From NCBI GenBank assembly GCA_963727805.1, contig CAVSHF010000005.1:512001-576000 (forward strand): 64,000 nucleotides of DNA, given 5' to 3'. How positions within the stretch are numbered: the stretch's first letter is position 1; the number at the start of each line of letters is the position of its first letter. Positions 27,726-57,407 of this stretch are shown here, one piece after another. This DNA is from an uncultured Nitrospiraceae bacterium. GTDB taxonomy: Bacteria; Nitrospirota; Thermodesulfovibrionia; Thermodesulfovibrionales; Dissulfurispiraceae. The notes below the pieces were generated by a model. That model did no database searches. It worked only from the letters and a program-made list of their open reading frames with translations, and was not told the DNA's origin. A program made the position numbers and the translations under genes.

Positions 27726-28604
27726 TCTCAGCGGTCTTCCTCTAATGTGTCTGATATTCTAAAAGAAGTACTCCGTAATCTTCACTTCTGAGGAGGAAGG
27801 CAAGCCGCAGAATGGCATTTTTCGGGACCCTGCAGTTTAAGCCCCGTACTGCGTATCCCCATCTCGGTGACAACACCTACACCCATTTATTGAATTGGAC
27901 AAAAATATTTTAACAGTTCTCTATGTTCTATTTTCAATGAGTTCATTATGACCGTATTGTTATTCTTACACACTCTATTTTTATGCTAGCCGGCATGGAA
28001 TCATATCGAAAATAATAAAAAAGTGTAATGGTGAAATATCTTCGCAAGATATCTAAGACCTACACCATATTATCACTCTCTCAGCCTTGTGTGGCGATTA
28101 CGCTCAAACATGGTTCAAATGAGTATGCGCCCGAATTTCTTTGGAGGTAGTATTGCAGAAAAGCCCCCTTTTTCATGCCCTGCATCTTTTGCCACGTACG
28201 GCTGATGGCTATTTTGACGACTTCACCTACACTGTTTTGGGGTATACCGGAAAGGTGTGTAATTCCAGTTCAACTGCGGATTAAAAATAGCAGCAGACCA
28301 GTTCACGGGTTTCCCGGAAGTCAACAGTCATGGTGAGTTAAGAAACAGTGACGCATTAGTTGGGAAATTTACACTGTCAAAAAACTTGTTTCGACGGAGG
28401 ATAAGGCCAGCTCAAACAGATCCCAACAGATGCCGTTCATGGCGAGCAAATCTCTGCCACTGCAGATTTTGCCAGCTAACTTGCCGACGCGGTGATACTT
28501 GAAAATGAGGCATGCCGAAAATAATCGTCATTGTGCTGAGCAGTTGCGAAAGATGCTTATTCGAAGTCGTCGAACTTTGGACAAAACTTCAATGACGATA
28601 ATTG

Positions 28605-29471
28605 TCACATGCTCAGAACTGGAATCGGCACCGCGCAAAGGATTGCGTAGCCATGGGTCCGCAGGTGACGGCCATAAGGGCGGCACCCGGTAACCAGCAA
28701 GTCCGCCTTTGTCTGCTTTACAGCTTGGCTCAGCACCATAGGCACGTCACCACAACCAATGTATACGTCTGCCTTGATCCCCATGGTTTGCTGGAACTCC
28801 GCCATATGCCGAGAAGCGTAGCCAACATACTCCTTTTTCAACTCTCGATTGACGTAGTTGCCACCCGGCCCCCACAACTCCACTCCGGGAGTGACGTGAG
28901 CGAGCGTGAGACGGGCACCAAATTTGTCGGCAATTTGCACAGCCCACGACACAGCTTTGTCATTATGAGCGGTAAAATCTACTGCGCATAGGACATGGCG
29001 AATCGCAAACTCCTGCACTGGCGATTTTTCCACGTGGGCGTCGGTCCAAACCGGGCACTCGGTCCCGTGAAGTACTTTCGCTGTCACAGAGCCCAGAAGA
29101 AACTCGTTGAACGTGTAGCCATAGGACGGCATCATGATCAGATCGGCTTTTTCCTCCTGAGCCGTCTCCACAATTGACCAGGCCGCGTCGCCTTCGACCA
29201 ATAAGCACCGAATGGTGACGTCTTCAAGCTCCGGCCCGAGAGACTCATCCAAGTTTTTCTTGGCCTCTCTGGTGATCTCCGCCATCATATCCCAACCAGC
29301 AAGCTCGGGGCCATCCTTTGGCACACAGGCGGGTTGGCTCAGCGGTGTCACGACGTGCAACATCACGATCTCAGAATGGAAATGGTGGGCCAATGTCGCA
29401 GCCTGATGAATTACATGCAGTGAGGTATTCGGGAAATCAACCGGAAGAAGTATTTTCTTAATATTCAGCAT
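28605..29471 (-). CDS. Universal stress protein (two USP domains)
   Basis: ILLPVDF, ADLIMM and LGSVTAKVL motifs. Confidence 0.9.
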   Translation of the reverse strand: MLNIKKILLPVDFPNTSLHVIHQAATLAHHFHSEIVMLHVVTPLSQPACVPKDGPELAGWDMMAEITREAKKNLDESLGPELEDVTIRCLLVEGDAAWSIVETAQEEKADLIMMPSYGYTFNEFLLGSVTAKVLHGTECPVWTDAHVEKSPVQEFAIRHVLCAVDFTAHNDKAVSWAVQIADKFGARLTLAHVTPGVELWGPGGNYVNRELKKEYVGYASRHMAEFQQTMGIKADVYIGCGDVPMVLSQAVKQTKADLLVTGCRPYGRHLRTHGYAILCAVPIPVLSM

Positions 29472-29728
29472 CGCCCACCATCCGAAAAATCAAACTCGAC
29501 TTTCAGTCTATCGCCAGGAGAGCCTCTATAATCTCGAATAGAACGCTGGAAAGCACCTGTGACCTTTGTAAGAACCCAACTGGGGTCCATGGGGCTTTGA
29601 TAATATAACAAATCTGTCAACGCCCCAGAAAGACCAAACAAAATGACTCACCTGCGATGTGTTGGAGAAAAAAGCCTCTTCCTCGCGCTCTCATATATGT
29701 TGGCCGCCGACTACATTGATGCTTTTTG

Positions 29729-30010
29729 TCACCAAGTTCTCTCGTATAAGGACTTAGTCTTGGCTGTTATCTTTGCAACTAATTTACTGTTAGCAGTTGT
29801 AGATTTCTTCTTTGCAGCCACCTTTTTAGCGGTAGGTTCCTTGGAAGCTATTTCTTTTTTGGATGCAGGCATCGCAGTAGCGATTGCAGTCTGTCTGGAA
29901 TGCACAATTTTTTCCGCTTCAACCCAGTATTCGAGATCGTGGCCATGAATGCAACCATATTTCTGATACAGTTCATAGGCAATCTTTTCAATTTCTGCTC
30001 TTTTATCCAT
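29729..30010 (-). CDS. DUF2934 protein with Lys-rich tail
   Basis: IEKIAYELY...GHDLEYWVEAE motif. Confidence 0.8.
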   Translation of the reverse strand: MDKRAEIEKIAYELYQKYGCIHGHDLEYWVEAEKIVHSRQTAIATAMPASKKEIASKEPTAKKVAAKKKSTTANSKLVAKITAKTKSLYERTW

Positions 30011-30274
30011 TTATCATGCCTCCAAGTTTTCTTTGCTGCCTGCATAGTATAGACGCTGTTGACAAGTAAAAAGTTACAATTAGTAAATTAATCGAAGCAG
30101 AGCAAGATTTAGGTAGAAGTCGAGAGCATAGTTTGACGTTTCTAAACACTTTTGAACACTTGGCTGAGTATTGATTAGCGGTTGATCTTACCCCGCGCAT
30201 TTTGAACAATTTTAAAGGCGTTGATTTCAGGAAGTACATCTCGGTGCATGTTTCAACTCGCAGTCCATCGCTCC

Positions 30275-30343
30275 CGTCCGAACTTAGTCGGAATAGTGTC
30301 CGAAGTAAATCGGAACAAGTGCCCGAACTCAGCGGAATATCCA
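30275..30343 (-). mobile_element. Solo IS21-family-like terminal repeat
   Basis: TGGATATTCCG start, with three tandem 22-bp units of form T.TTCCG.....TTCGG.C. Confidence 0.6.
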
Positions 30344-30450
30344 TTTAGCGCTATCAACCTCCGTAGCAGACTTTCACCGCCAAGTATGCACCCATACTGG
30401 GCGCACACGACAATGCGGGATATCTGAGATCATCATGCCTTAGTGGGCGC

Positions 30451-30774
30451 TTATCTAGGCATACTGATGCCATGAGTATCCCGTAATACATCAGGGTCCT
30501 CCATCGTATCAAGCGTTGCTCTCCAGCCTTTCGCCTGGGTTAGCTGAAATTCAAGGTCAAGGATGTTAGATTCCGCACAAGCGATGAGATAGTCCCTTGC
30601 CTCTTCCCAAGTATTAAAGTAGTTGTCGCCGGTAGGCAAATCTGACCTCTTTGGAATGCTACGTCCCTTTGGGTAAGCAGGGTGAGCACTAAAAACAGAT
30701 GACGTGGTTTCACGAAGGACTTCAACCTTCTGAATGCTTGAACGACTCGCAGAAACCAAATACTTTGTTGTCAT
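30451..30774 (-). CDS. Hypothetical protein
   Basis: 107-aa ORF coupled to the upstream ORF. Confidence 0.55.
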   Translation of the reverse strand: MTTKYLVSASRSSIQKVEVLRETTSSVFSAHPAYPKGRSIPKRSDLPTGDNYFNTWEEARDYLIACAESNILDLEFQLTQAKGWRATLDTMEDPDVLRDTHGISMPR

Positions 30775-31091
30775 ACAGATGAATCACCTTTTGGCAATGG
30801 CTGACTGCCCAATTTAATTTCCCGGTTATCGAAGGCCTCGCTTACCAGCCATAACTTGTGCTCAAGCCCCGACCTATCCCATTGTTCACTGGAAAGATTG
30901 TGGAACCCCATTGTCTCTTCAGCAACATCGAGAACGCATGCATCAAATGCCGCCCGTTCTGTCTCGTAAGATTCGCGGAGTCTCTCTGGAAATTCCATCA
31001 ATGCTTTAAATAGGTCAGCCACAGTTGGAAGCCCCATGCTCGATGAGAAACCACTCCCGAGGACGAATACTCTATTTAATTTCCGAGTCAT
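30771..31091 (-). pseudogene. SIR2-like N-terminal fragment fused to unrelated sequence
   Basis: VFVLGSGFSSSMGLPT resembles the SIR2 GAG.S...GLP motif; too short for a full domain. Confidence 0.5.
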
Positions 31092-31168
31092 TCAATAAAT
31101 TATGAGCATATAAGCTCTTATTGATTCCAATTGGAAAATATGCATAATTATACCATGCCTTGGCTGTG

Positions 31169-31217
31169 TGGACCTATCCCCGGTCATTGTGCCACTATGA
31201 ATTAGAAAATGCCAGCA
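31169..31217. repeat. 49-bp dispersed direct repeat, copy 1 (copy 2 at 39893-39941)
   Basis: 45/49 identical by manual alignment. Confidence 0.85.
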
Positions 31218-31767
31218 ATAGCAAGCTACCTGAATGTACTAGACTCGCAACGCTCCCTTTACAGTGCGCAGCAGGGGCTACTTACCGTTCGACTGTCTCG
31301 GCTGATCAATTTGGTAACACTCTACAAGGTGCTGGGTGGAGGTGGAGTGTAAATATGAACTCATTGTTCCTTTGACCATTTCATGTTTTTAGAGGCGACG
31401 TTAGAAGAGGTCGGGGTCAGACATAACGCGCTCGTGAAGGTTATTTTCGCAAATGACCAAATTTTCTGTGCTGGCGGCAGTGGATGTTTTTAGGTGCAGG
31501 CAATATTTTCAAGAGAAGAGCATCGCTCTAGCAGGAAGAAATGTTGCGAAAACGTCCCGATCTCTTCAGTCCACATTATAAGTAACAGCTCAAGCGCCGA
31601 TTCTCGATGTCACCTAAAAGTTATCGACTTTGCCAGCACTAACAATTTGGTGATTAGCCACAAAAACTATCATGGTTGCTTTGTTGAGTGCTTCCTTGTA
31701 ACGCGGCGATCTGCATGAATATACGTTTTCTGACCGTCCTTGCGCTTCCAAAGTACACGCCGAGAGC

Positions 31768-32313
31768 TTACGACGCCCTAAGGACCATGACCATCTGGCG
31801 GCCGTCCATCTTCGGCTGGGATTCAACTATAGCGATATCCGTCAGTTCCGACGCCAATCTGTTCAGAACACTCGCTCCCAGATCCTGGCGACTAAATTCC
31901 CGTCCTCTGAATCTAATGGTTACTTTGACCTTGTCCCCTTGATCGATGAATTTCCGCGCATTGCGCTTCTTGAAATCATAGTCGTGGGTATCAATCATCG
32001 GACGCATCCTGATTTCCTTGATTGTGAGAGTCGTTTGCTGCTTCCTAGCCTTTCGCTCTTTTTTGCCTTCTTCGAATTTGAACTTCGTGTAATCCATAAT
32101 CTTGCATACCGGCGGCTCTGCCTGAGGGCTGATCTCCACAAGATCCAAATCTCGTTCCTCGGCCATCTTCAATGCTGAGTCGATATCCATTATTCCGATT
32201 TGTCCTTCATCGGCGACAACCCGTATCTCTTTCGCTTTAATCATATGGATCTGATTATTTACTCGGGTCTTATCGACAACCCGTACAGGTGATACTCGTC
32301 CTTGATTAGCTAT
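31768..32313 (-). CDS. infC: Translation initiation factor IF-3 (probable ATA start)
   Basis: LDLVEISPQAEPPVCKIMDY, KEIRMRP and DKVKVTIRFRGRE motifs; GGAGG 7 nt before ATA at 32313. Confidence 0.95.
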   Translation of the reverse strand: MANQGRVSPVRVVDKTRVNNQIHMIKAKEIRVVADEGQIGIMDIDSALKMAEERDLDLVEISPQAEPPVCKIMDYTKFKFEEGKKERKARKQQTTLTIKEIRMRPMIDTHDYDFKKRNARKFIDQGDKVKVTIRFRGREFSRQDLGASVLNRLASELTDIAIVESQPKMDGRQMVMVLRAS

Positions 32314-32570
32314 GGTGCGTCCTCCTTTTTTGTTGAGCTTGTCGGCAATTCTGCTCGTTCCGTACACAATAAACGGCACTCATAAGTATAACACTTTTAT
32401 CCGCTAAGATTATATTTAATAACAGTAAATGTCGTAATTACATAGTAAGCTCCGCTATTCAGTAAATGCCTGATGGTTCCGTTGTCATCACGCCAACTGT
32501 CGTGTTATACCCCGTTGACTATTCCGCGAGATGCAGTAGAATAAGAGTAAGTCTAATCAAGGAGGACATC

Positions 32571-32687
32571 ATGAGTAAAGAAAAAAACAAGCAAAAACCA
32601 AATGAAAAGAAAAAACCTCAGCACAGCCTAAAAGAAAAAAGACAAGCAAAGAAAGAAAAGGCCGAAGGTAAGAGCGCCTCTATATGA
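32571..32687 (+). CDS. Small Lys-rich protein (38 aa)
   Basis: AAGGAGG RBS; MSKEKNKQKPNEKKKPQHSLKEKRQAKKEK... Confidence 0.7.
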   Translation: MSKEKNKQKPNEKKKPQHSLKEKRQAKKEKAEGKSASI

Positions 32688-32751
32688 TGCTCAGTTAAAC
32701 TTACAATGGGTAGGTCTATTCCCGATTCATAGACCCACCCGTTTTTTCCCC

Positions 32752-33039
32752 TCAGCTTAAGTGCTTATTGACTAATTTGGTCATCTCAAACATCGAGACT
32801 TGGTTCTTCCCGTCGAATATAGCCAAGAGATTCTCATCTGCATTGATATTTCTCTTGTTCTTTGCATCCTGAAGATTATTTTTCTTTATATATGCCCAGA
32901 GTTTCTTGGTTATTTCTGTCCTTGGAAGCGGTTCATTACCCACTATCTTTGCCAATGCACCGCTCGGCTTCATAGCTTTCATAAATGCCGGATTAGGAGC
33001 TCTATTTTTTGAAACTTTCTTTTCCGATTCTGTCATCAT
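32752..33039 (-). CDS. SWIB/MDM2 domain protein
   Basis: PRTEITKKLWAYIKKNNLQD...MFEMTKLVNKHL. Confidence 0.93.
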   Translation of the reverse strand: MMTESEKKVSKNRAPNPAFMKAMKPSGALAKIVGNEPLPRTEITKKLWAYIKKNNLQDAKNKRNINADENLLAIFDGKNQVSMFEMTKLVNKHLS

Positions 33040-33154
33040 AATCTCCTTATGTTTGTGGTTTAGAGTCTGAATTCCTGTATTTCAGAACTGACACTTCTAA
33101 AGTATACACGAATCCAGCCTAAAGCGAGACATTGCACAACATACCACAATTAAT

Positions 33155-34375
33155 CTATCTGCCTACCATTATTTCTTTATAGCAGGTGGAGTTGCGGATG
33201 TTATCAAAATCGCTGTCGGTTCTAATATGTTTCCAGTTGCTATACCCCTTTTTAATTGCAGTTTTCAGCAAGTTGCATGCTTCAGATGTATTGTTTGTCA
33301 TTGAAAAAAGGCAAGCCTTTTCATAGTAAGCCTCAGCCAAATCAGGCTTGAGCTCTATGGCTTTGTTACAATCGTCCATTGCCTGCTGAGTATCACCTGA
33401 GTCATGGTAGTAAGCAGTTCCCCGCCTCGTATAGGCCTCAGCAAAATCAGGCTTGATTTCTATAGCTTTAGTGAAATCTTTAATAGCCTGTTGATCATTG
33501 CCTGAGAGGTAATAAGTAGATCCCCGATTAAAATAAGCCTCAGCAAAACCAGGCTTGATTTCTATAGCTTTAGTAAAATCTTTTATAGCCTGCTGAAAGT
33601 CGCGTAATGCACCATAAGCCCTTCCTCGGTTAAAATAAGCCTCCATATAATCAGGCTTGATTTCTATAGTTTTAGTGAAATCTTTAATAGCCTGCTGAAA
33701 GTCGCGTAATGCACCATAAACCATTCCCCGATTAAAATAAGCCTCAGCAAAATCAGGCTTGATTTCTATAGTTTTAGTGAAATCTTCAATAGCCTGCTGA
33801 AAGTCGTGTAATGCACCATAAGCCCTGCCTCGGTTAAAATGAGCCTTCATATAATCAGGCTTGATTTCTATAGCTTTAGTGAAATCTTTAATAGCCTGCT
33901 GATCATTGTCTGAGAGGTAATAAGTAGATCCCCGATTAAAATAAGCCTCAGCAAAATCAGGCCTGATTTCTATAGCTTTAGTAAAATCTTTAATAGCCTG
34001 CTGAAAGTCGCGTAATGCACCATAAGCCCTGCCTCGGTTAAAATAAGCCTCCATATAATCAGGTTTGAGTTCTATAGCTTTGTTAAACGCATCTCGTGCT
34101 GATCTGTTCATACCTGCTAAGAAATAGTTATTGCCCTGATTAAGCCAATATTCTGATGTATTTTCATAATTCTCGATATGGCTCCTTTGACTTATTGCCT
34201 CTCCTGCTTCATCATAGGCTATCATGACGACTACCGCCTTATTATTTTCCTTGAAAATATTCTGAGCATCCGCAAGACAGATAACGGGAAGAAGAATCAT
34301 GATGAGGAGTAAAATAACTGGAAATAAAGGAAGCTGTCTCTGCTTTAAGGAGTGTTTTATCATTTTCACTCTCAT
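33155..34375 (-). CDS. Exported TPR protein with near-identical 102-bp repeats
   Basis: About 9 TPRs of form AYFNRG...QQAIKDFTKAIEIKPD; C-terminal DSDFDNIR. Confidence 0.9.
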   Translation of the reverse strand: MRVKMIKHSLKQRQLPLFPVILLLIMILLPVICLADAQNIFKENNKAVVVMIAYDEAGEAISQRSHIENYENTSEYWLNQGNNYFLAGMNRSARDAFNKAIELKPDYMEAYFNRGRAYGALRDFQQAIKDFTKAIEIRPDFAEAYFNRGSTYYLSDNDQQAIKDFTKAIEIKPDYMKAHFNRGRAYGALHDFQQAIEDFTKTIEIKPDFAEAYFNRGMVYGALRDFQQAIKDFTKTIEIKPDYMEAYFNRGRAYGALRDFQQAIKDFTKAIEIKPGFAEAYFNRGSTYYLSGNDQQAIKDFTKAIEIKPDFAEAYTRRGTAYYHDSGDTQQAMDDCNKAIELKPDLAEAYYEKACLFSMTNNTSEACNLLKTAIKKGYSNWKHIRTDSDFDNIRNSTCYKEIMVGR

Positions 34376-34741
34376 ATGTATCCTCCTGTGATAATGTCTC
34401 GGGACACCTATATCATATTAACACCTTAAAACAGAACTGCTCAGGATGCAAGTCTCCAGTCCACCTTCTATCAAATAGAGCCAATTTTTAACGAAGGCAA
34501 TTTCAGCTACGCCGCCACAAGCATGAGAGAATGTCGGCAGTGCATATTTGCGTTATATGCACATAACCCGCATTGTAACTCTACTATCTTTGCAGCGAGG
34601 CATCTTGCACTGTGGTAAGTGTTTCTTGTGTGTCGGCCTCCAAAGAGAACTTCTAGTGAAAATCTTAATTGATCTCACAACAATGAAAAGCCAGCTAAGG
34701 ATGGATAGCATACCAGCAATTATTGTGTCCTGACCAATTTT

Positions 34742-35182
34742 TTAACTGCGCTCAAAAATCCAAAAGTAGCGCGACATAAAATTCCATAAAAAAGCTACTC
34801 CTGTAGCAGCAATCTTAGCAATAAAAATATAGAGGTTGGTCCACTCAACAAGTGCAGAAAGCACCACTAAATTAATGAAAAGGCCGATGATGCTAACCAT
34901 GTAAACTAGTACAATCTCGCGCTGACGAACGTGACGCCCACTTTTAAAGACAAAGCACAAACTCAAAATATAATTTACAGCGGTAGCCAGGATGAATGAT
35001 AAAATAGCTGAATTTATATAATGCCATTTCAGTATGTATATAAAAATGGCAAACACAAGCCATTCTGACATTGCGGCAATGCCACCAACGCAAAAATATT
35101 TACTGAATTTTAAAAGTAGAGGTTTATATCGCGAAAGACATTTCCTTAAGGCATGTGATGCTATTAAAGTTTCGGAGCCCAC
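34742..35182 (-). CDS. GtrA family flippase-like protein
   Basis: KYFCVGG, NYILS...FVF and WNFMSRYFWIF motifs. Confidence 0.88.
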   Translation of the reverse strand: MGSETLIASHALRKCLSRYKPLLLKFSKYFCVGGIAAMSEWLVFAIFIYILKWHYINSAILSFILATAVNYILSLCFVFKSGRHVRQREIVLVYMVSIIGLFINLVVLSALVEWTNLYIFIAKIAATGVAFLWNFMSRYFWIFERS

Positions 35183-35221
35183 GGATTATCTCTCACGAAT
35201 AGTCATGCTTACTCAACAATA

Positions 35222-35905
35222 TCAACTAAAAAGGTTATACTTCAATATACATCTGAGGGCAGAAACACCGTCGCGCCAACCAATTTTTTTCCCTTCTTCA
35301 TAAGTTCTGCCAGCGTACGATATGCCTACTTCATATATACGAGCTCTCAGTTTAGACACCTTAGCGGTAATTTCAGGCTCAAAACCAAACCGATTTTCTT
35401 CGATAGTAATCTTTGTGTATATGTCCCGTGTGAATACCTTGTAGCAAGTTTCCATATCGGTGAGGTTCAGGTTTGTTAACATGTTGGAAAGAAGGGTTAA
35501 CAGTTTATTTCCAACCATATGCCAGAAATATAATACCCTGTGAGCCTCACCACCCATAAAACGTGAACCATAGACTACATCAGCCCTTCCCAGAAGGATA
35601 GGCTCGATCAACCGCGGGTATTCATTCGGGTTATACTCTAAATCAGCATCCTGAATTATCAATATATCACCAGTGACTTTTCGAAAACCGGTCCGTAAAG
35701 CAGCACCTTTCCCCATATTTTTCTCATGGAGGCAAACCGTTGTGTCGCCACCCGCTAGCGTTTTGACGATTTCCCTTGTACCGTCCGTAGAGCCGTCATC
35801 CACTAAAATAATTTCTTTGTCTATCTCTATAGCCTTTATTGCACGATAGATTTCAATGATCGTTGTTTTTTCATTAAAGACAGGGACAATAACTGACAGT
35901 TTCAT
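35222..35905 (-). CDS. GT2, DPM/GtrB-like polyprenol-phosphate glycosyltransferase
   Basis: PVFNE, QDADLEY, DMETCYK and FGFEPE motifs. Confidence 0.93.
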
Positions 35906-35906
35906 T

Positions 35907-36850
35907 TTACAATCCAATTATATCTGCGAAATATGCTACGGTTTTGTTTAAACCTTCAGTGAGATTGACGGACGGGAGCCAAGCCAGCTTCTCCTTGGCC
36001 AATGCGATATCGAGTTGCCTCTGTTTGGGATCATCTTCTGATATAGTCTTAAATGTAATTCTTGATCTCGAACCGGTCAACTTTATTATCACCTCTGCCA
36101 ATTCGCGGACGGAAACTTCCACAGTATTTCCTAACTTTACAGGACCGACAAAATCATCGGGACTTTTCATAAGTTTAACAAGTCCATCAATAAGGTCATC
36201 AACATAACAGAAACTCCTCGTCTGACTACCATCGCCATATATTATAATGTCCTCACCCTTCAACGCCGCAGTAGTAAAAGTTGCTCACCTCGCGACCATC
36301 ATCCAGATGCATTTTCGGTCCATACGTATTAAATATCCTCGCAACTTTTATTTTCAATTTATGCTGCCGATAATAGTCAAAAAAAAAGGGTTCAGCACAT
36401 CGCTTCCCTTCATCGTAACACGCCCTCGATCCAATAGTATTCACATTTCCCCAATAGGTTTCAGGCTGAGGATGAACAGAGGGGTCTCCATATACTTCAC
36501 TTGCAGATGCAAGCAAAATCTTGGCCTTCACTCGCTTGGTTAATACTTCCATGGACCGAAGTCTTTGTTGTTTGAACCGGATCAAACTGATAATGTATTG
36601 GAGACGCCGGACAGACAAGGTTATAGATCTCATCCACTTCACCATAAAGAGGAAAGCAAATGTCATGACACATAACTTCGAAAAAAGGATTTTGCATCAA
36701 AATGGTGATGTTTGCTTTCCTCCCAGTATAATAATTATCCACGCAAAGCACTTCGTCTCCGTCATTCAAAAGTCTTTCACAGAGATGAGAGCCAAGAAAA
36801 CCTGTGCCGCCAGTCACCAGAATACTCTTTTTTATGGAATTGTTCTTTGG
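35907..36850 (-). pseudogene. UDP-glucuronate decarboxylase (UXS-like), frameshifted
   Basis: [41 protein letters not shown] and GDGSQTRSFCYVDD fall in three separate ORFs. Confidence 0.9.
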
Positions 36851-37298
36851 GATTTCTCAATATATTAGATATTATGTCTATATTAACACATAAAGTATAG
36901 TCTTAATTTTTACATATTACTTTCAATTCGACAACACTTCAATTGTGGTCTACACTCTCCAAAGAGCAGACATTCAATTGAGTCAATATTGCTATACAAG
37001 GAAAGGAGCGGCTTAATGCGCAACTGAGAGCTGAAATAGTCGCTGAAAGTCTATCTCAAGCGCAGGTCATCAAGACCGCGTCCACGGTTTTCCTGCACAT
37101 TATATGGTTGCAGCGAATTGTATGACTTCTATGACGGCCGCACCCACTCAGCTTTTTGATGGCGGTAATCAGAGTGACTCGATAAAATGCATAGAAATGA
37201 ACTATAAAACAACCCTAGAATTAATCCTTTTATTTTGCGAGTCGTTTAGTTATACTAACCGCTAAGATAACTGTACAAAAAGATAGTATGCTGAATGG

Positions 37299-38030
37299 GT
37301 GACTCAAATGATCCAGCTTAGTTCGGACATCTGGAAGAGTTTTTGGGATGTGGTCCCTCTAAGTCAAACCACTATAAATTTTATTGAGAGCCCCCTTATT
37401 GGCACAACGTCATTTCTGATCCCCTTCTATCTGTTCCTGATCTCTAGTGCGGTACTCATCTTTATTGTTGAAAATCTGCGTCATGGTGATTTACAACTGG
37501 GAAGATCCTTCAAAAGTACTTCTCACAAGAGACGCTCAGATCTTCGCACTGGTCCGCAAGGTCGTAGACATCATCTCCTACAAACTATCGTGCTATCACT
37601 CATGAAAACAGTTATCCTCACCTGTATTGCGGGAGGAATATTATTTGCTCTAAGAATGGATTATGGGTGGTATAAGCTATGGGAATTCGATAAGGAAGTC
37701 CTCGCACCAATGAGTCTCGACGAACGGATTGCTTTTTTGGAGCAGGCACGAATAAATTTATTTGCTCAATGGTTGAGAACAAATATACCACAAAATGAGC
37801 AAGTAAGAATCATCACTAGCAATTCTTATTTCAGGTTTGTACTAAAATATTACCTTCTACCGGTAAAAAGCTCCGAAAATGGAAACTACATAGTTGTCGC
37901 AGGAGAAAATTATTCTTTTGATCCGGCAAAACATACCTTGCTGCAAGATCGAAATATCGTTGAACAAAATCTTGTCTTGATTAGCCTGGGTCGAGAGTTT
38001 ATTGTATGTCGAAAAGCTAGAGTTAACTAG
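37299..38030 (+). CDS. Hypothetical membrane protein
   Basis: 243-aa ORF with two hydrophobic segments, abutting the next gene. Confidence 0.65.
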   Translation: MTQMIQLSSDIWKSFWDVVPLSQTTINFIESPLIGTTSFLIPFYLFLISSAVLIFIVENLRHGDLQLGRSFKSTSHKRRSDLRTGPQGRRHHLLQTIVLSLMKTVILTCIAGGILFALRMDYGWYKLWEFDKEVLAPMSLDERIAFLEQARINLFAQWLRTNIPQNEQVRIITSNSYFRFVLKYYLLPVKSSENGNYIVVAGENYSFDPAKHTLLQDRNIVEQNLVLISLGREFIVCRKARVN

Positions 38031-39446
38031 ATGATAATTATGATGCTTAGCTATGCAATATTACTACCCACATTAACAGGTTTTTTGTTTGTCAGTTATT
38101 TTTCTCGCTATGAAGATAAACACAATTTGTTTGAAAGACTATGTTTTGGTTTCGGCATGGGGACTGCTTTGCTTACTTTTGAAATGTTTATAGTTGGTCT
38201 GTTGCAAATTCGATTTAGCTTACATTTATTTTCAGCAGTACAAATATTGACTATGATTTTATTTGGTTCGTTGTTGTTTAAATCAAAATATACTTTTATA
38301 GAACTATTTGAATTTAGGCTAAGTAGTGAAATGGGGATACCGTTCTTAAATAACTCCAAGGCACAGTTGATTTTGTTTTTGCTGCTAACAAGCTGGATTC
38401 TGCTAAAGTTTTTTCTTATTACCCGCACGAGCTATATATTGCCGGTTTTTGCGTGGGATAGTTTGGAAAATTGGAGTTCTGCTGCAAAATTTTTTTTCTA
38501 TGAGAAGGGGCTTGCACTGGAGCATTCAGAAGAGCACTTTTTTGGCACGGGATACAGAACCTTTTTGAATTATCCACTGCATGTTCCTTTAATACAGGTA
38601 TGGTTTTCTCTCTGTATCGGAAATATCCATGAAGCATACATCAAATACTGGAATGTTATTTACTTTATTAGCGTTGTTGGATTGCTTTTCTTTGCGCTGA
38701 AAAGGGAAGTTTCAGCAATTATTGCTATTTTCGCAGCTTTCTTCCTCTCATCTGTGCCGCTGCTTACATTTCATGCGACCCAAGCTTATGCAGATTTGCC
38801 TTTGAGCTATTATGCTCTGGCAGTTACCGTATATTTCAGAAAATACATGAAAAGCGAACAAAAAGATGCTAATTACGGCATCCTTACAGTCATGGGATTA
38901 TTTGCAGCTTTCTGTTTATGGACAAAAATAGAGGGCGTTTTGTTTTGTTTAGCATTCAGTACAACTTTAATTTTTTACCTTTTCTTGAAAAGAAACGGTA
39001 CTAAGGAGTTATTAAATAGCATTTGTTTCTATTTGCTGCCTATAAGTATCATAAGCTTTTCCTGGTTTTCTTTTATATTATTGAATAGTATTTCAGGACG
39101 CGGGCTTGAAGGTTTCCTCACTTCGGGTCTCCATTTTGAGGTTTTCCCAATCATCTGGGATCAAATCATGTTTTCTGCAAATTTTAATATTATTTTCATT
39201 TTTTTCTTCACTATGCTTTTCTTGAGTATTAAATCCGTTTTCAACTCTGACTTAAAATATCTTCTAATTGCACTATTATTAATTATGCTGATGTATCTCT
39301 TCATCTACGTGACTACGGATAATTACAAGTGGGTAATGGACTTGGCAGCCATAAATCGTAACATCCTGACGCTAATTCCTATGTTATATTATATCAGCGC
39401 GCTGATGACGGTAGATTTACTAAAGACAACAGATCGTGGAAGGTAA
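38031..39446 (+). CDS. Polytopic membrane protein, putative GT-C glycosyltransferase
   Basis: WD...W...AK, YP, YADLP and TKIEG motifs; near gtrA/GT2. Confidence 0.65.
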   Translation: MIIMMLSYAILLPTLTGFLFVSYFSRYEDKHNLFERLCFGFGMGTALLTFEMFIVGLLQIRFSLHLFSAVQILTMILFGSLLFKSKYTFIELFEFRLSSEMGIPFLNNSKAQLILFLLLTSWILLKFFLITRTSYILPVFAWDSLENWSSAAKFFFYEKGLALEHSEEHFFGTGYRTFLNYPLHVPLIQVWFSLCIGNIHEAYIKYWNVIYFISVVGLLFFALKREVSAIIAIFAAFFLSSVPLLTFHATQAYADLPLSYYALAVTVYFRKYMKSEQKDANYGILTVMGLFAAFCLWTKIEGVLFCLAFSTTLIFYLFLKRNGTKELLNSICFYLLPISIISFSWFSFILLNSISGRGLEGFLTSGLHFEVFPIIWDQIMFSANFNIIFIFFFTMLFLSIKSVFNSDLKYLLIALLLIMLMYLFIYVTTDNYKWVMDLAAINRNILTLIPMLYYISALMTVDLLKTTDRGR

Positions 39447-40234
39447 CAAGTCTTATCATGTTTCTATGGGCACGGCAAAAACTTTTTAATATTTCGCGGC
39501 CAGACGCGGGAAGGATGTTTGACATTAAGATGCCATGCTAAATATACCCTTTTATGACGTTCAGGTGAAATAATGATATTGAGCCGCAAAGCCTCTCATA
39601 TTAGATCCGGCACCGCATGTTTAAGTGAATATTTACAATATTCTCATGTGCGATGGTATTGTCGAGCAGTCTGATGGGTACAAGTGTAAAGAAACGGCCT
39701 TAGAATATCTATGTTCCTGCAGTCTCCGGCCACTACTTAAACGTTTTGGCAATTAGAGTATTGTTATCACTTGCCACTTATACACATCACCGTAGGGCAT
39801 GGCCTATTACTCAAGCTTTCTTTCGGAAGTCGAGACCATCGTTCGTCGGTGAAGAATGTTTGTACCACCTGAAAATCGATTTTTAGGCCACCTGGACCTA
39901 GCCCTGGTCATGGTGCCACTACGAATTAGAAAATGCCAGCATCACCAGTAATATTTACTTCTTGGTGGACTCTTGAGTCGAACCATATTGCTTTCCACTT
40001 GTACACTTCAGAGTCATCAGGTTAACAACAGGTGTTATTTTCGCGAGAAAAAGTTGCCAACTTTACTCTCTTTGGTTATACAGTCCCAACTACAACACGG
40101 TGGAGACACGTTTTTTCTTTTTTGAACAGTCGTTTCGAAAAAGCAACCGAAATTTGACCATCTGCGATCACCGAATATTGATCACCCTAAGCTAGTTGAT
40201 AATCAGGGATGATAGTGGGTAATCATCCCGCCGT

Positions 40235-40486
40235 TTATTCGTACTGGCGTCTCAGTTGCCTTGCTTTCTTCCGGTCATACCCGATATCAGCCCTCGAAGT
40301 ATCAGGAACCCTGAGTGGATAGGCGTACCCGGACTCGCTGATCAGCATATCGCCGTCGAGATCCGTTATCATCGAGATATCGCCGGCATTGCTGCATTGC
40401 TTGAACCAGGTCGTATTGTCTCTGGTGAATGCGACTTCAACCGTTTCAAGTCTGCCTTTTTGAGGATTGTACACTGTGGTTTCCAT
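40235..40486 (-). CDS. Hypothetical passenger protein inside IS21
   Basis: 83-aa ORF starting 3 bp after the istB stop, inside the IS ends. Confidence 0.7.
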   Translation of the reverse strand: METTVYNPQKGRLETVEVAFTRDNTTWFKQCSNAGDISMITDLDGDMLISESGYAYPLRVPDTSRADIGYDRKKARQLRRQYE

Positions 40487-40489
40487 AAG

Positions 40490-41263
40490 TTATTTCTCCT
40501 TGCCTCCATGTTTTCTTTTTTCCTTAAGGCTCTGCTTCAGACGATAGCTGTCCCAGGTGCAGTTAATGATATGGGCTTTATGGGTCAGCCGATCCAGCAG
40601 CGCGGCGGTCATTACCGGATCGCCAAATACTTGGGTCCAGTCGGCAAACCCAAGATTGGTTGTGATCATCACTGACCCTTTCTCGTGCCTTTCCGCCAAA
40701 ACCTGAAACAGTAGTTCCGCTCCTTCCTTGGAGAAAGGTATATACCCCAGTTCGTCCAGAATGAGCAGATCGTAGCGAACATACCTTTGGATAAGACGCT
40801 GTAGCGTCCGCTGCTGTCTTGCTTCGATCAGTTCGTTGACCAGGCCGTAACAGGTGACAAACCGGGTCCGAAAGTTGTTTTTACAGGCTTCGATCCCCAG
40901 GGCAGTGGACATATGCGTCTTGCCAGTGCCACTTCTTCCAAGAAAGATGACATTCCGGCACTCCTTTATATAGCCTTCTGCGGTAAGTTCCCGGAACAGC
41001 CGAAGGTCCAGTTCCGGTACTGCTGCAAGATCGAAGGTCTCCAGTGGCTTGATAATGGGGAACTTTGCCTCCCTGACGCGGCGGTTCAACCTGCTTTCCG
41101 ATCTGGCTTGCAGTTCTGCTACGGTCAGATTGAGGAGAAACTCGTCATAGCCGATCCCGGCTTCCCGGGCTTGACGCACGAACCCCTCAATGTCGCGAGC
41201 CATGGCTGATAGATTCAGCGCCCTGAGATTTGCCTGCAGTTCCATCGACTCTCCGGCTTTCAT
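40490..41263 (-). CDS. istB: IS21 helper ATPase
   Basis: GRSGTGKT, LLILDELGY and ALLDRLTH motifs. Confidence 0.96.
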   Translation of the reverse strand: MKAGESMELQANLRALNLSAMARDIEGFVRQAREAGIGYDEFLLNLTVAELQARSESRLNRRVREAKFPIIKPLETFDLAAVPELDLRLFRELTAEGYIKECRNVIFLGRSGTGKTHMSTALGIEACKNNFRTRFVTCYGLVNELIEARQQRTLQRLIQRYVRYDLLILDELGYIPFSKEGAELLFQVLAERHEKGSVMITTNLGFADWTQVFGDPVMTAALLDRLTHKAHIINCTWDSYRLKQSLKEKRKHGGKEK

Positions 41264-46819: not shown

Positions 46820-46902
46820 CAACTAGCAGTTACTATTTGCTATGATGCTAAAAGTGTGCTATAGTTGCAAAAAGATGAAAAAGGAATTTCATATATTAAT
46901 CG

Positions 46903-49420: not shown

Positions 49421-49874
49421 ATACCTACGTCTTTTCTAAGTGTCGTATCCACCTTATCTTATCGGATTATATGAAGATTTCTTGAATTGATGCTATGATT
49501 GCCAGTGAGGAGTATTATAGGCAACTTTTACCATCTCAAAGTGATGCCGTGAGGTTGTTCGGTGAAGCTGGCGGGATGACGTGCATTTACAAGAGAAACC
49601 TTGCGTGATATTCAATATATCGCGTGTGTTTATTTCCAGAAATAATCTGCAATGCACCCCATCATGCCGCGATAGAGGTTATGAATAGTAGGACTAAACC
49701 GCTGCGCGGTGGATTCGATTAGCAAGGGCCTATCAGTAGTAGTACCATCTTTTTCGAATAGCCACTTTTGCCTGATCACATTTCTTTGTTGAACCATCGA
49801 AGTCTTTTTACAATCTCTCTTTGCTGTGCTGCCGGCATGAGCTGGCAGAAAACAGTTTCAAAGGAGATTGTATT

Positions 49875-50720
49875 ATGAGCGCGTTGAAAGAACGGTTGCT
49901 GCAGGATCTTCAGTTGAAGGGCATTACGCTTGGTGTCCAAAGGAAATATCTCCGGGAAGTCGGTAACCTTGAGAATTATTTCGGCAAGTCTCCTGAAGAA
50001 CTGAGTACAGAGGAAGTGAAGCAGTATCTGGTTCATCTTATGGAAGAAAGGGGTTTAACGAGGGGGACATACAGAACCTATGTGGCCGGGATCAAGTTCC
50101 TTTATAATACGACCCTGAATCGTGCGGATGTAGTCAATAATATTCAATATCCGAAAGCCCAGAAGAAGCTGCCTCTCGTTTTGGATTTGTCCGAAGTCCA
50201 GGCGATTTTCTCAGTCACTGAAAACATCAAGCACAAGGCGCTTCTGATGATCACCTATTCTGCCGGGTTGAGAATAAGTGAAGCTGCGCGACTGAAGGTG
50301 ACAGATATCGACAGCAAGAGTATGCTGGTTTATGTCCGTCTTGGAAAAGGGGCAAAGGACCGTTACTCCATCTTATCGCAGACTGCCCTTGAGTGCTTAA
50401 GACAGTATTGGAGGGAATATCGCCCGGAGGAGTGGTTATTTGAAGGCGAGAAGGACAACACCCATATCACTATAAGCTCCATCTACCAGATATTCCAAAA
50501 ATCCAAGAAACGCGCCGGCATCGCAAAGAATGCTTGCGTGCATACTCTGAGGCATAGTTTTGCGACACACCTTATCGAGGCGGGGACTAGTCTTCATCAT
50601 GTCCAACTGCTTCTTGGGCACAGGTCACCGACGACCACGACCGTTTATCTTCATGTCAGCAAGATGAATCTGGCAAAAGTTGTCAGTCCGCTGGACATAG
50701 CAACTAAAAAATATCTGTAG
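49875..50720 (+). CDS. Tyrosine recombinase/integrase
   Basis: GLRISE, HTLRHSFATH and LLGH...TT.Y motifs. Confidence 0.95.
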   Translation: MSALKERLLQDLQLKGITLGVQRKYLREVGNLENYFGKSPEELSTEEVKQYLVHLMEERGLTRGTYRTYVAGIKFLYNTTLNRADVVNNIQYPKAQKKLPLVLDLSEVQAIFSVTENIKHKALLMITYSAGLRISEAARLKVTDIDSKSMLVYVRLGKGAKDRYSILSQTALECLRQYWREYRPEEWLFEGEKDNTHITISSIYQIFQKSKKRAGIAKNACVHTLRHSFATHLIEAGTSLHHVQLLLGHRSPTTTTVYLHVSKMNLAKVVSPLDIATKKYL

Positions 50721-50741
50721 CACTCTGAGCCGTAAATCCAG

Positions 50742-51938
50742 ATGCGCCAGTCTCGTGGTGTGGAGGTGGCGGATATCTTACGCCGCTACGGCTCCGATTA
50801 TCGGCAGTCTCATTCCTTGCCTCTTCGTCATCTGCGGGCCATGCACGCCGTGGAGATATGCAGGACGGCAGCACTCGGAGGCCATAGGGACAAGTGCGAG
50901 GATTGCGGCCACGTCGAGATATCCTACAACTCCTGCCGGAACAGGCACTGTCCCAAATGCCAGACCCTGAAAAAAGAACAGTGGATTGAGGCCAGACAAC
51001 AGGACCTTTTGCCCATCCAGTACTTCCATGTAGTTTTCACTATCCCGTCGGAACTCAATCCGGTTGTCATAATGAATCAGAAGGTCATGTATGATCTGCT
51101 GTTCCGTTGTGTCTCCGAAACTCTCACCGAACTCTCAAATGACCAGAAGCATCTCGGTGCCCGCATCGGCTTCATCAGCATCCTTCATACCTGGGGGCAG
51201 AATCTGATGGACCATCCCCATATCCACTGTGTCGTCACCGGAGGCGGCCTGTCTTGCGACGGAGACAGTTGGGTATCCTGCCGCAAAGGCTTCTTCATTC
51301 CGGTCAGGGTAATGTCGGCGTTGTTCCGGGGAAAGTTCCTCGATCATCTGAAAAGGATCTTTGAAGCGGGTGATCTTATCTTTCCCGGAGGAATAAGTCA
51401 TCTCGGCGATTCCCATACCTTCGAGATGCTCAGAAGAAAGCTTTATCACAAGAAGTGGGTTGTCTACTGCAAACCGCCCTTCGACGGAGTTGGCGGCGTC
51501 CTGCAATATCTCGGCCGATATACGCACAGGATCGCCATCAGCAACAATCGTATAATCGAGGCCGAAAACGGCAAGGTCTCGTTCAAATGGCGTGATTACG
51601 CAGATGACGATAAGCACAAGGTGATGACTCTGCAGGCCGATGAGTTCATCAGAAGATTCCTTCTGCATGTACTGCCGAATCGATACGTTCGGATAAGGCA
51701 CTTCGGCCTGCTGGCAAACAGGAAACGTAGAGATAACATTGCTGCATGCCGCGAGCTTCTTGACAGTCACAACACCGTAATGAAAGAGCAGGACAAGCCT
51801 GAGACCTGGCAGGAACAGCTGCTAAGGATCTGCGGCATTGACGTCACCACCTGCCCCGTTTGCAAAAAAGGCAAGATGCGCCGAATTGAGATTCTGCCTC
51901 CCCGCCGCTGCAACGATCCTCCGGAGCAATGCCGATGA
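50742..51938 (+). CDS. IS91-family transposase with Zn-binding domain
   Basis: SCRNRHCPKC, HPHIH, YLGRY and RIRHFG motifs. Confidence 0.95.
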   Translation: MRQSRGVEVADILRRYGSDYRQSHSLPLRHLRAMHAVEICRTAALGGHRDKCEDCGHVEISYNSCRNRHCPKCQTLKKEQWIEARQQDLLPIQYFHVVFTIPSELNPVVIMNQKVMYDLLFRCVSETLTELSNDQKHLGARIGFISILHTWGQNLMDHPHIHCVVTGGGLSCDGDSWVSCRKGFFIPVRVMSALFRGKFLDHLKRIFEAGDLIFPGGISHLGDSHTFEMLRRKLYHKKWVVYCKPPFDGVGGVLQYLGRYTHRIAISNNRIIEAENGKVSFKWRDYADDDKHKVMTLQADEFIRRFLLHVLPNRYVRIRHFGLLANRKRRDNIAACRELLDSHNTVMKEQDKPETWQEQLLRICGIDVTTCPVCKKGKMRRIEILPPRRCNDPPEQCR

Positions 51939-52429
51939 AAACCGTGGTCGTTTCAAAAATCGCCTCAATATCGCCCCGCGAAAAAAACATCTCTTTTCGC
52001 AACACGGTCTTGTTGTCCGAAAACGCCACTTTCGGCCCTTGCACATCATCGCAAAGGTCAAACAGGGGCATTAAAGACGCTGCCTATCAGCCTTGTTCAG
52101 CAAGACTTGCTCCTATATATCCTAAAAGATGCCACTGCCGATAGTATAAGGAAGGATAATCTTCGATTGAATTGACATATCCGCACAGCGGCTTAGTCCT
52201 TCACACGTCAATCCGCAACTTCGCAGCGGATTGACGCTTATTCGTACTGTTTCAATGACGTCAGAATCCTTTTTGTGCGGAGTATAAGTGGAACATCTCA
52301 GTGACCCGATCCTCGATAACTACTTATAATCGCGAGTCCTCCCAACACGGTGAAGACGCTTGATTTCGATCGGTAATCTTTGACGTACCCAATACGGCTT
52401 AGACCATTTGCCGAGCGATAAAAAACATC

Positions 52430-52997: not shown

Positions 52998-53000
52998 AGC

Positions 53001-53768: not shown

Positions 53769-53826
53769 CGAATAATGGAATTCTGCGATGCGGCGGCGCT
53801 ACATCCGCGGCAATAATTAGTTATGG
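53769..53826 (-). other. Degenerate integron attC-like site
   Basis: Stop codon lies in CCATAAC; TT(G)CCGC(G)GATG pairs with CATCGCAGAA leaving two extrahelical bases; the core is degenerate. Confidence 0.5.
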
Positions 53827-54803: not shown

Positions 54804-55013
54804 TTACTTTGCTTTTCTATTCTTGCTACTGAACGATGTCCAAATAAAAGCGATACCTACAATAATCATGAAAATCCCAAGAAAAACGTTATAACCAGTT
54901 GCATTAAGGGTCACCCTATATATGTCGTTGCAAATTACAGGGTCGTTTATTATTCCTATGCCAAGAAATATCAAGATAAGACCCAATATTGTAAAACCAA
55001 TTTTATTAAACAT
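54804..55013 (-). CDS. Small 2-TM hypothetical protein (possibly truncated)
   Basis: Two hydrophobic helices. Confidence 0.55.
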   Translation of the reverse strand: MFNKIGFTILGLILIFLGIGIINDPVICNDIYRVTLNATGYNVFLGIFMIIVGIAFIWTSFSSKNRKAK

Positions 55014-55481
55014 AAATATTTCCATTTGACATACGGCGCTCGGTGTCATGCTCTTGATTATTTGTAGTCAACGCAATTATATCAGATTGCGCAGTGTATA
55101 TTTCTAAAAGTTGATGACGATGGAATATTTCTTGTTTCTTGGGAAATATTGCATTCTGATTATTGAGCTTGTGACGATTACGTGGTGCAACGAGAACGGA
55201 CCACTTATAACTACTTAAAACCAATAGTCGGCGATATCGGCTCGTGATACGAGCTTTCTCCCGGAAATAGATACTATCGCAGGTCGGTAGAGAATGATGA
55301 CAATGTGACGGCTGCATTAGATGTCGGGACATTGCTATTTTGCCTTGACAGGCACAAATATTTTTGTTGAAGAGTAGGTTTAGGTGTGATAGCATGTAGC
55401 CAATGAGTTATTCGTATGATTACGGAGAAGGGCAACAGCTCTGAATGCCTGTTATAGAAAATATAAGGGAGGTTACAAGAA

Positions 55482-55925
55482 ATGAAAAAAATGCTTATTC
55501 TTGCTATCTGCTGCATCTTTGCTATCGTTTCGTTATGCTTCGCGTCTGATCTCAAAAAGGTTGACAATCCGACGATTGAAATGCTCCAAGGCAAATGGGA
55601 GGGAAAATATGAAAGAACATCGGGAAATAGGACGGAAGGTCCGTTTGAGATGAAATTTAAAGGTAACAAAGCAAAAATTACGCGGGGTTATAACTGCACC
55701 GATCCTCTTAGTCAGGGGTTTGCTACGATCGATAAGATCGAGGGAAGCAAAATATTCATGTCTTCTAAAAACTCCAATTTTGAAATTGAGTTGTTTACTA
55801 ACAATAATGCTGAGTTTTTCATTGAAGGCAACTTTACCGGCTACAAGGAGGCCGCTGTCGGAATTGGGTCTGCAACAAGAAACTCCGACATTAAACTACA
55901 AAGAACGAGTACTAATAGACGCTAA
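55482..55925 (+). CDS. Hypothetical secreted protein
   Basis: GGAGG RBS, signal peptide, LQGKWEG. Confidence 0.75.
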   Translation: MKKMLILAICCIFAIVSLCFASDLKKVDNPTIEMLQGKWEGKYERTSGNRTEGPFEMKFKGNKAKITRGYNCTDPLSQGFATIDKIEGSKIFMSSKNSNFEIELFTNNNAEFFIEGNFTGYKEAAVGIGSATRNSDIKLQRTSTNRR

Positions 55926-56657
55926 GAATGTATCAGATAAAGCAGTAAAAGAGTGAGCAGAAATCAATTACGCTTGATGGTCGTCCTGTGATAATCACTT
56001 ACTGGCACTAAGTATTGAAGAATATTAGCGATAAGGCTAGCTCTTTAGCGCTAAAAGGGGAAAGAAAACGGAGCTGATTTCTTTTATGATAGCCGGATCT
56101 ACCGTCGTAATAATCATCGGCAGTTCCGGCTGTTTAAGACTAGATGATCACACTTTTGCCGAAGCACGTGCAGCTAGGCTTTGCAGGCGGAGTTTTGATG
56201 AAGACGGCCTCTCAATATTTACGCTTAGACGTACCCATAATTGTATTCAGGATACTCCTTTTTGTTGACCGAAGCTGTTCGTATGCCGAGAGGCTTGCCA
56301 CGTCGGAACCTTGCGTCTTCGGGGTCCAGGTCGGCGATCGAAGAGCGAAGAGCGAAGACCCCTAGTCAAGCACGGGGTTTAATGCCCCGCGCGCAAAGCT
56401 GGTCCTAGAGCGCATAGTACGATCGGGCCCTTACTCCCGTGAGAAGGCAGTGAGAGTTGAGAAATTTTTCGATGCAAGGTTAGTAGTCGAAGTCATCGAT
56501 ACTGCATGATCGCCCAAATCGATGACTTCTTGGTGTAATGATCGGAAGTTGTCTCTACATTGCATTCCATCCGAAGATTTACAATATGCGTGCTCAAATT
56601 CCTCAGTTACCGACTCTATTTTTCAGTTGCCATCTTTATTTTTCGCAATCAATTATC

Positions 56658-57407
56658 TCATTTACGCCCATTAAGTTTGCTTTCGATTCTGGAACATATA
56701 CCGTGAAGCATGTTAACTTCCCATTCCGTAATACCTGCCCTGCCGATAAAGTGTTTAAGGTTCGTCATGATCTTTTTTTCAATGTCTCGATCCCCCATCG
56801 GGATATATTCGAGCAACTTCAGGGTATCCGAGATTCTTGCATACAATAATGAAAGTTCCTCGTGACGGACGAGTCGGACAGACGCGAGAGAAGCTTTCCC
56901 GTAGGATTCTGACTCTCTATAATCGACGCGTGAAAGCTCATATGCCACAATAAGGACCGCCTGCGAAAGGTTGAGTGATGGATGTTCGCTATTGGCCGGA
57001 ATGGAGAGAAGTAAGCCGCATTCTTCAATCTCTTCATTAAAGAGGCCCCGATCTTCCCGTCCGAACAGAATCGCTATCTCGTTATCCGCTGCAAGGGCAC
57101 GCAGCTTCTGTACCCCTTGCGCGACGGGATAAATAATGCCTCGCTTCTTCCCCTTTCGACGTGTAGTCCCTGCAACAATCGCCTTATTACTTATCGCCTC
57201 TTTCAGGTTTTGATAAACAGGAGTGGCTTCGAGCACATCGAGAGCATTGCGCGCAAACCATTTCGCCTCGTCAGTAATTGCCACAGGCTTGACAAGGCAG
57301 AGTCGTCCGAATCCCATGTTCTTGATCGCCCTCGCAGAAGCGCCCATATTCCCGGGTTCGCGCGGCTCAACGAGGATAAAAGAGACATTATCCTTCCAGC
57401 TTTTCAT
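56658..57407 (-). CDS. trmJ: tRNA/rRNA 2'-O-methyltransferase, SPOUT TrmJ/LasT type
   Basis: VEPREPGNMGASARAIKNMG, FGREDRGL and SLNLSQAV motifs. Confidence 0.88.
   Translation of the reverse strand: MKSWKDNVSFILVEPREPGNMGASARAIKNMGFGRLCLVKPVAITDEAKWFARNALDVLEATPVYQNLKEAISNKAIVAGTTRRKGKKRGIIYPVAQGVQKLRALAADNEIAILFGREDRGLFNEEIEECGLLLSIPANSEHPSLNLSQAVLIVAYELSRVDYRESESYGKASLASVRLVRHEELSLLYARISDTLKLLEYIPMGDRDIEKKIMTNLKHFIGRAGITEWEVNMLHGICSRIESKLNGRK

Follow-up and report, generated by a model that had tools for sequence, protein, structure and literature searches.

The window is a stretch of 64,000 nucleotides from contig CAVSHF010000005.1 of an uncultured Nitrospiraceae bacterium. It carries trmJ, which encodes an RNA methyltransferase of the TrmJ/YjtD family, and behind it an array of two tandem units bounded by Tn7-like ends. 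This array and the site that it occupies are described here. Coordinates are those of the window unless another contig is named.

Organization of the array behind trmJ

Features are sorted according to their position. TSD, target-site duplication.
27258..27725, plus strand: DUF4149 gene, left flank of the array
27886..27890, no strand: outer TSD copy TTTAT, 4/5 identity to ATTAT
27891..43019, no strand: unit 1 (L1-R1), 15,129 bp, no tns genes
27891..28032, plus strand: left end L1, TGAATTGG terminus, B-type sites at 27899-27917 and 28014-28032, 115 bp apart
42973..43019, minus strand: right end R1, TGATCATG terminus, two tandem A-type sites at 42993-43011 and 42973-42991
43020..43024, no strand: TSD ATTAT, common to R1 and L2
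43025..56651, no strand: unit 2 (L2-R2), 13,627 bp, no tns genes
43025..43166, plus strand: left end L2, TGATTTGG terminus, B-type sites at 43033-43051 and 43148-43166
56605..56651, minus strand: right end R2, TGATTGCG terminus, two tandem A-type sites at 56625-56643 and 56605-56623
56652..56656, no strand: trmJ-side TSD ATTAT, followed by one C and by the trmJ stop (56658-56660, minus strand)
56658..57407, minus strand: trmJ, TrmJ/YjtD family RNA methyltransferase gene, intact, single copy

The layout read from the letters is TTTAT-[L1…R1]-ATTAT-[L2…R2]-ATTAT-C-trmJ stop, and the whole array spans 28.8 kb. This layout had been proposed by a first-pass annotation and all its coordinates were confirmed. 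Duplications of 5 bp are present around both units (ATTAT/ATTAT for unit 2, TTTAT/ATTAT for unit 1). The window is the sole locus seen with both outer ends plus duplications. The gene at the docking side matches TIGR00050 (TrmJ/YjtD) with 196 bits, for a cut-off of 167 bits. The target gene tested is thus trmJ and not glmS, the gene of attTn7.

Termini and TnsB-type sites

A-type refers to the right-end repeat of the window (consensus AAAAATAAAGTTGGTAACT) and B-type to a second type of site. All four ends have an 8-bp terminus starting with TG, followed by TnsB-type sites of about 20 bp. Each unit has one tandem-site end (right, period of 20 bp) and one spaced-site end (left, sites 115 bp apart). 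The left ends do not carry the right-end repeat; they carry the different B repeat. All four termini read TGA inward (L1, TGAATTGG; L2, TGATTTGG; R1, TGATCATG; R2, TGATTGCG), as previously claimed. The right ends had been described as an 8-bp terminus followed by tandem repeats. The tandem sites are indeed found, but the repeats that were quoted belong to R2, and the first repeat of R1 is AAAAATATAGATGGTAACT.

The likeness between the two units holds. R1 and R2, flank included, match at 46/52 positions. L1 and L2 align without gaps over about 150 bp (102/150 identical, 40/50 in the first 50 bp; blastn E value of about 2e-12 against the genome). No further copy of the window's ends was found by blastn in the 3.9-Mb genome of origin. 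The right-end pattern, with at most two mismatches, was found twice in the window and not once in any of 100 shuffles; this pattern was built partly from the window's own ends. The homology of R1 to other trmJ right ends extends about 108 bp inward.

One additional site lies inside unit 1.
40052..40070, minus strand: lone A-type site, score 21.7, 64 bp left of the insertion sequence (IS) IS21; about 190 bp from the R1 terminus once the IS is subtracted

This site may be the remnant of another end. An inverted site inside the left ends scored just 3-7 bits and was dropped. Run X1 contains a further right end, aligned here with positions 56605-56644 of the window, whose terminus is TGATCAT and whose flank differs.

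Ends behind trmJ in related genomes

The genomes searched are mostly fragmented metagenome-assembled genomes (MAGs), one per species. trmJ was found in 55 of 67 relatives of the same family; one lacks its 3′ end, so that 54 were scored. A Tn7-type end (TG-terminated, with 19-bp sites) lies behind trmJ in 15 of them, 12 with an A-type end and three with a B-type end (tandem B sites behind a TGA terminus). Six rows missed by the motif rule were checked by eye and none has an end. The same kind of trmJ end is found outside the family in G409 and G431, which belong to two other families, and on metagenome contigs L160 and L162/L166. The metagenome pattern scan gave nine contigs: three carry trmJ with an end, two of them being one junction, and six do not correspond to trmJ. 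An end of the same kind is also found on L108 (Dissulfurispiraceae), whose trmJ is 70% identical to that of the window. Run X4 gave one loose contig end, with a B-type end on the trmJ of a close relative at the same offset. No trmJ end was shown in five loci from other families of the order.

Among 390 genomes of the class, 12 matched the right-end pattern (reversed control, 0). When the genome of the window is excluded, 9/11 matches are at trmJ; the others are one behind a Memo-family gene and one at a contig end. Only G092 matched among the 301 genomes of its phylum. Three scans of viral contigs gave no match. Plasmids gave no end match either, and TnsB relatives there have at most 43% identity among the 25 matches listed, all 461 being below 60%. 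A blastn search of the left ends against 68 family genomes gave short chance matches only.

One orientation is preferred: the terminus with the tandem or first site faces trmJ in 20/20 loci. G085, which has a far A-type end with a matching 5-mer and no near end, may be reversed.

Ends of this type were also seen elsewhere, and cargo was seen at one trmJ end. In two Acidobacteriota MAGs (L104:9983-10046 and L105:9981-10046), A-type tandem-site TGT ends lie 17 and 19 bp past the stop of a T2SSF/PilC-family gene, whose end is a candidate second attachment (att) site. In G542 (L246:5412-5483), an A-type end lies 23 bp past a Memo-family gene, itself located after dnaB, with a possible far end at about L246:11640. 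The end of the Memo-family gene is a candidate further att site, from a single case. Behind the trmJ end of G409 (L244:11596-18725), patatin, DncV-like cyclase and E2-E1 genes are found, that is, an operon of the cyclic oligonucleotide-based antiphage signalling system (CBASS) type.

Position of insertion relative to the trmJ coding sequence

The distance from the terminus to the Gly codon of the conserved M-L-H-G motif is 48, 48, 49 (14 times), 50, 51, 54 and 56 bp (n = 20, namely the 15 family relatives and five further loci; standard deviation, SD, 1.9). It is thus within 48-51 bp in 18/20 loci, whatever the position of the stop. The distance from the terminus to the trmJ stop varies from -29 to +14 bp (SD 11.0, n = 18, two rows being dropped by the motif rule). 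Two of the ends, those of G080 and G086, fall within the trmJ coding tail. A fixed spacing to the Gly codon is predicted by recognition of the coding sequence. In this respect the trmJ site behaves like a TnsD-type att site, where elements enter at a constant offset from conserved 3′ coding sequence wherever the stop may be.

56675..56711, minus strand: putative recognition zone, inferred extent, codons M-L-H-G-I-C-S-x-I-E of trmJ; Gly codon start at 56702, 51 bp from the R2 terminus

The base preceding the Gly codon is C in 17/18 occupied sites vs 22/43 end-free sites (Fisher p = 0.001). This hints at recognised bases; kinship or codon bias could yield the same difference. Many related bacteria have similar ends at an equal distance from trmJ, and the trmJ tail is therefore likely an undescribed landing site for Tn7-like transposons.

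Relationship of the ends to the Tn7 family

The genome-wide pattern scan gave nine loci, including L109 from a Geobacteraceae MAG. The right end of L109 is identical to R1 at 42/47 positions and to R2 at 38/47, with the same TGATCATG terminus. This end carries four A sites and lies about 150 bp before tnsA-tnsB-tnsC. The far end has three spaced A sites; a perfect TAAAT duplication is found on both flanks, and glmS lies 24 bp outside. In Table S1A of Benler et al. (PMC8649781), the same right-end motif appears in nine rows with clade-1 TnsB, and a close variant is given for Nitrospira moscoviensis. Given the link to tnsABC in L109 and the motif of this table, the right ends of the window are, on sequence grounds, Tn7-clade ends.

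L109:429-10100 together with L197:2205-4040 corresponds to a 9.6-kb tnsABC element at glmS, without TnsD and with its spaced-site end toward the gene. This element is head-to-head with an older tandem-site end, the first base of which overlaps the duplication.

Attribution of the four ends to insertion sequences or to an integrase island unrelated to Tn7 is very hard to sustain. It is true that IS21, ISNCY and an integrase+IS91 unit are part of the array and that two integrase genes follow the end of G003. However, exact or near-exact copies of the IS21 and IS91 units elsewhere have boundaries that exclude all four ends. The IS21 boundary lies 78 bp inside the sites of R1, so R1 is not the end of IS21. 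No long direct att core was found. The same end flanks tnsABC in L109, which largely refutes this explanation.

The TGA termini had been taken to define a new end family, a proposal that is not retained. Among the 20 trmJ termini, seven are TGA and 13 are TGT, next to the same repeat; TGA is therefore not the mark of a family. One end of L109 is TGA and the other TGT, and there this same repeat flanks a Tn7-clade tnsABC at glmS. TGA ends are already published for bacterial Tn7-like elements such as Tn7005 (10.1101/2025.07.27.667033). Walker et al. (PMC10201428) give the terminal TG as the essential feature and positions 1-3 as important.

Transposition genes and target selector

No match to tnsA, tnsB, tnsC or tniQ was found in the window, including with 26 query proteins from fetched loci. 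The genes that an autonomous Tn7-like element carries inside its ends (tnsA, tnsB, tnsC and tniQ/tnsD) are thus absent, in agreement with the earlier proposal that no such open reading frame is visible in the array and that both copies would be non-autonomous or decayed. The units work like Tn7-like members and are best read as relics.

TniQ was found in 6/67 family relatives and TnsA in 41/301 genomes of the class. None of the loci fetched around these matches has trmJ or tandem A/B sites. No cognate TniQ/TnsD was found on the elements at trmJ that were searched. Five elements of Nitrospirota with an L109-like TnsB (L182, L184, L185, L186 and L187) encode two TniQ/TnsD each, so dual-target elements exist in this phylum. 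One of them has a glmS fragment about 22 kb away.

The genome of the window encodes one apparently intact tnsA-tnsB-tniB-tniQ operon (C5:893698-898425), 325 kb from the array and 81-89% similar to one in G003. It is of another type. It was considered as a helper and rejected on present evidence: it has no A/B sites nearby, neither clear ends nor a target were found for it, and it is only 26% similar to the L109 TnsC over 134 aa.

Homing could also be RNA-guided, by a CRISPR-associated transposon (CAST) whose special spacer would target trmJ, in the way known for guaC, yciA, ffs and rsmJ. Fixed spacing and one main orientation are features of CASTs too, and TnsD was not found. This explanation is nevertheless unlikely. 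No cas gene and no CRISPR array was seen in the window, nor when the genome was scanned crudely for repeats; the best short match to the trmJ tail is not part of an array. The third codon positions before the Gly codon vary among occupied sites (8/15 at ≤0.61; G034-type positions -34 to -10). The A repeat is tied to a tnsABC element docked at glmS. The Gly codon is a chosen landmark, so that the distance of 49 bp is uninformative about a protospacer.

Proposed origin of the array

The 28.8 kb behind trmJ were probably built by repeated insertion of Tn7-family elements at a site that the final codons of trmJ provide. Four ends, three copies of the duplication, a constant spacing in relatives and the tnsABC link, all of them observed, support the first-pass annotation on Tn7-family origin, on repeated insertion at a fixed position behind trmJ and on the 5-bp duplication. 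The proposed steps follow Tn7 biology (as reviewed in PMC11406308). A DNA-binding protein of the TnsD/TniQ type would recognise the conserved M-L-H-G codons of the trmJ tail and load TnsC. TnsC would set the offset; joining by TnsAB would take place about 49 bp away from the Gly codon and leave the tandem-site end on the trmJ side. trmJ would stay intact. With each newcomer, the same 5 bp would be duplicated again and the older elements displaced outward. Unit 1 would be the older unit, because newcomers push elements away and because its outer duplication copy has one change. The tns genes would have been deleted later, or supplied in trans by an element that is no longer present. At least two insertions are needed.

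Several observations weigh against this interpretation. Two checks had been suggested from the outset, namely a search for tnsABC/tniQ next to such ends downstream of trmJ homologs and a search for empty-site genomes in which the DUF4149 gene directly converges on trmJ; neither gave the expected result. No tnsA, tnsB, tnsC or tniQ was found behind trmJ ends in about 487 kb (partly overlapping) plus 96 kb, apart from one marginal match (E 9e-4). TnsD (PF15978) is above cut-off in 0/317 genomes of the order. TnsB of the L109 type is found in 5/401 genomes of the phylum, never at trmJ. The exact empty site was not found, and the contigs of four runs show no DUF4149-trmJ join, although lack of cover proves nothing. 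The DUF4149 gene is present in 4/5 genomes of the same genus, each time on a different contig from trmJ, and has paralogues elsewhere in the genome of the window. No duplication-matched far end was found for the ends of 13 relatives within 2.8-79 kb. Triplet runs are seen in the flanks of both off-register loci (54 and 56 bp). Nine of the trmJ ends served to train the A matrix and five the B matrix, and those match by construction; G086, G082, G010, G081, G087, L160, G409 and G431 were found after training. Among these, G081 (16.6 bits) and G087 (15.0 bits) each depend on a single weak site. Because the genomes are related, they do not count as independent samples. Lastly, the left and right ends of both units are identical at 14/27 first bases, for 24/27 in L109.

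Unlike left and right ends

A TnsB site shared by both ends, as in a terminal inverted repeat, is not found in either unit. Units 1 and 2 may therefore not be native: they may be chimeras of A- and B-family elements. Elements of two end families would have been inserted in turn at the same landing site, and deletion or recombination across two inner junctions would have left a B left end and an A right end. A chimera of this kind could no longer move, and its tns genes would be lost. Such an origin would change the number of events (four insertions are possible in that case) and not the att site.

This alternative is tentative and somewhat less probable than not. L1 is identical at 25/27 positions to the trmJ-side end of G083 and at 14/27 to its own R1. 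The B sites score below zero on the A matrix. B-family tandem-site ends are found at trmJ in G083, G080, G017 and run X4; in G083, a real A-family right end lies about 105 bp beyond the B end. Since elements inserted in tandem at one site share a single duplication, the ends cannot be paired by their duplications. However, the identical rearrangement would be required twice in the window. In G036, an A-like right end is likewise combined with a B-type left end of the same 114-115-bp layout, although the two flanks differ. A-like and B-like sites are mixed in one array at the ends of G032 and G431, so that one TnsB may tolerate both.

It is also conceivable, if rather improbable, that trmJ is a common dock for several transposase lineages, with A, B and further types of ends, and that a single undescribed selector, encoded by a visiting element, serves all of them in trans. 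The chromosome would keep gene-less cargo units, some of which, with unlike ends, would still be mobile. This would explain why no tns genes are seen at any of the 20 occupied sites and why no TnsD is found in the 317 genomes of the order.

Cargo of the two units

Unit 1: genes encoding Usp, DUF2934, a second infC copy, SWIB, a TPR protein, GtrA, a GT2 glycosyltransferase, an epimerase in three pieces and a PMT-like protein; IS21
Unit 2: genes encoding a PAS protein, DinB, a split ISNCY transposase and a hybrid histidine kinase; integrase+IS91 unit; gene encoding a WG-repeat protein
40134..42894, minus strand: IS21 (istA-istB), 100% identical copy at C5:985874-988634
49687..52247, plus strand: tyrosine-recombinase + IS91-family transposase unit, passenger, seven further genome copies with at least 99% identity

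The second IF-3 gene (infC, 31768-32379) is cargo; its identity to the other copy, at C5:628 kb, is 47%. In unit 1, the Usp gene (28605-29533) has 86-87% DNA identity to L199:10192-11120 and L050:12387-13289. These matches lie about 12 kb (G085) and about 32 kb (G033) behind trmJ. The Usp gene is possibly cargo shared with these two genomes.

trmJ as an attachment site in the literature

Term searches did not find trmJ in the main text and three supplement files of Faure 2023 (PMC10293859), nor in the searched text and supplement file 1 of Benler 2021 (PMC8649781). The terms 'trm' and 'methyltransferase' are absent from Hsieh 2023 (PMC9881144), and 'methyltransferase' is absent from the searched text of PMC11014353 and of the archaeal preprint 10.1101/2025.07.27.667033. 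trmJ is not in Table 1 of the review PMC11406308. Literature searches on Tn7 with trmJ gave only tRNA-modification papers, judged by title and start of abstract. No paper was found for a Tn7 att site at an RNA methyltransferase gene, for Tn7 in Nitrospirota or for trmJ-downstream islands; subscription papers and bioRxiv supplements could list the site. The earlier view that trmJ is not known as a described attachment site holds for the literature searched.

The mechanism is likely the known one of Tn7, and the trmJ site is likely undescribed and occupied here by a tandem array of gene-less relics. The surprise is moderate, because the mechanism is already known from Tn7. Few Tn7-family targets are known, and this site adds a conserved safe harbour to them, in a lineage for which genetic tools are scarce. 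Its existence predicts a target selector whose DNA specificity would be new. The site, occupied in about a quarter of the species of the family, escapes surveys that start from tnsB or tniQ, because these genes are gone.

Comparison with known Tn7-family systems

Tn7 at attTn7 has closely spaced TnsB sites beside the att site, spaced sites at the far end and a fixed offset from a conserved 3′ coding sequence (PMC11406308). The array shares these features and the 5-bp duplication. It differs by its target (trmJ), its lack of tns genes, its TGA termini and left and right sites more divergent than those of a complete element. No A/B-type end was found behind glmS in the genome of the window.

Tn7005 and the archaeal clade X element (bioRxiv 10.1101/2025.07.27.667033) also have TGA rather than TGT termini. 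They have other hosts and other targets. At trmJ, both termini occur with the same repeat.

The L109 element, which is not among the transposons described so far, differs from the units of the window by its location at glmS, its spaced-site end toward the gene, the presence of tnsABC (TnsD being missing) and its two A-type ends. It resembles them by its right end (42/47 to R1), its TGATCATG terminus and its tandem arrangement with a second end.

Like the att sites at parE, nrdB, comM, yhiN, tRNA genes and nrdD, as far as these are covered by the sources consulted, the trmJ site uses the end of a conserved housekeeping gene as a safe harbour. The nrdB-family elements are described as mostly decayed remnants (PMC11014353), and the two units behind trmJ here are likewise best read as relics.

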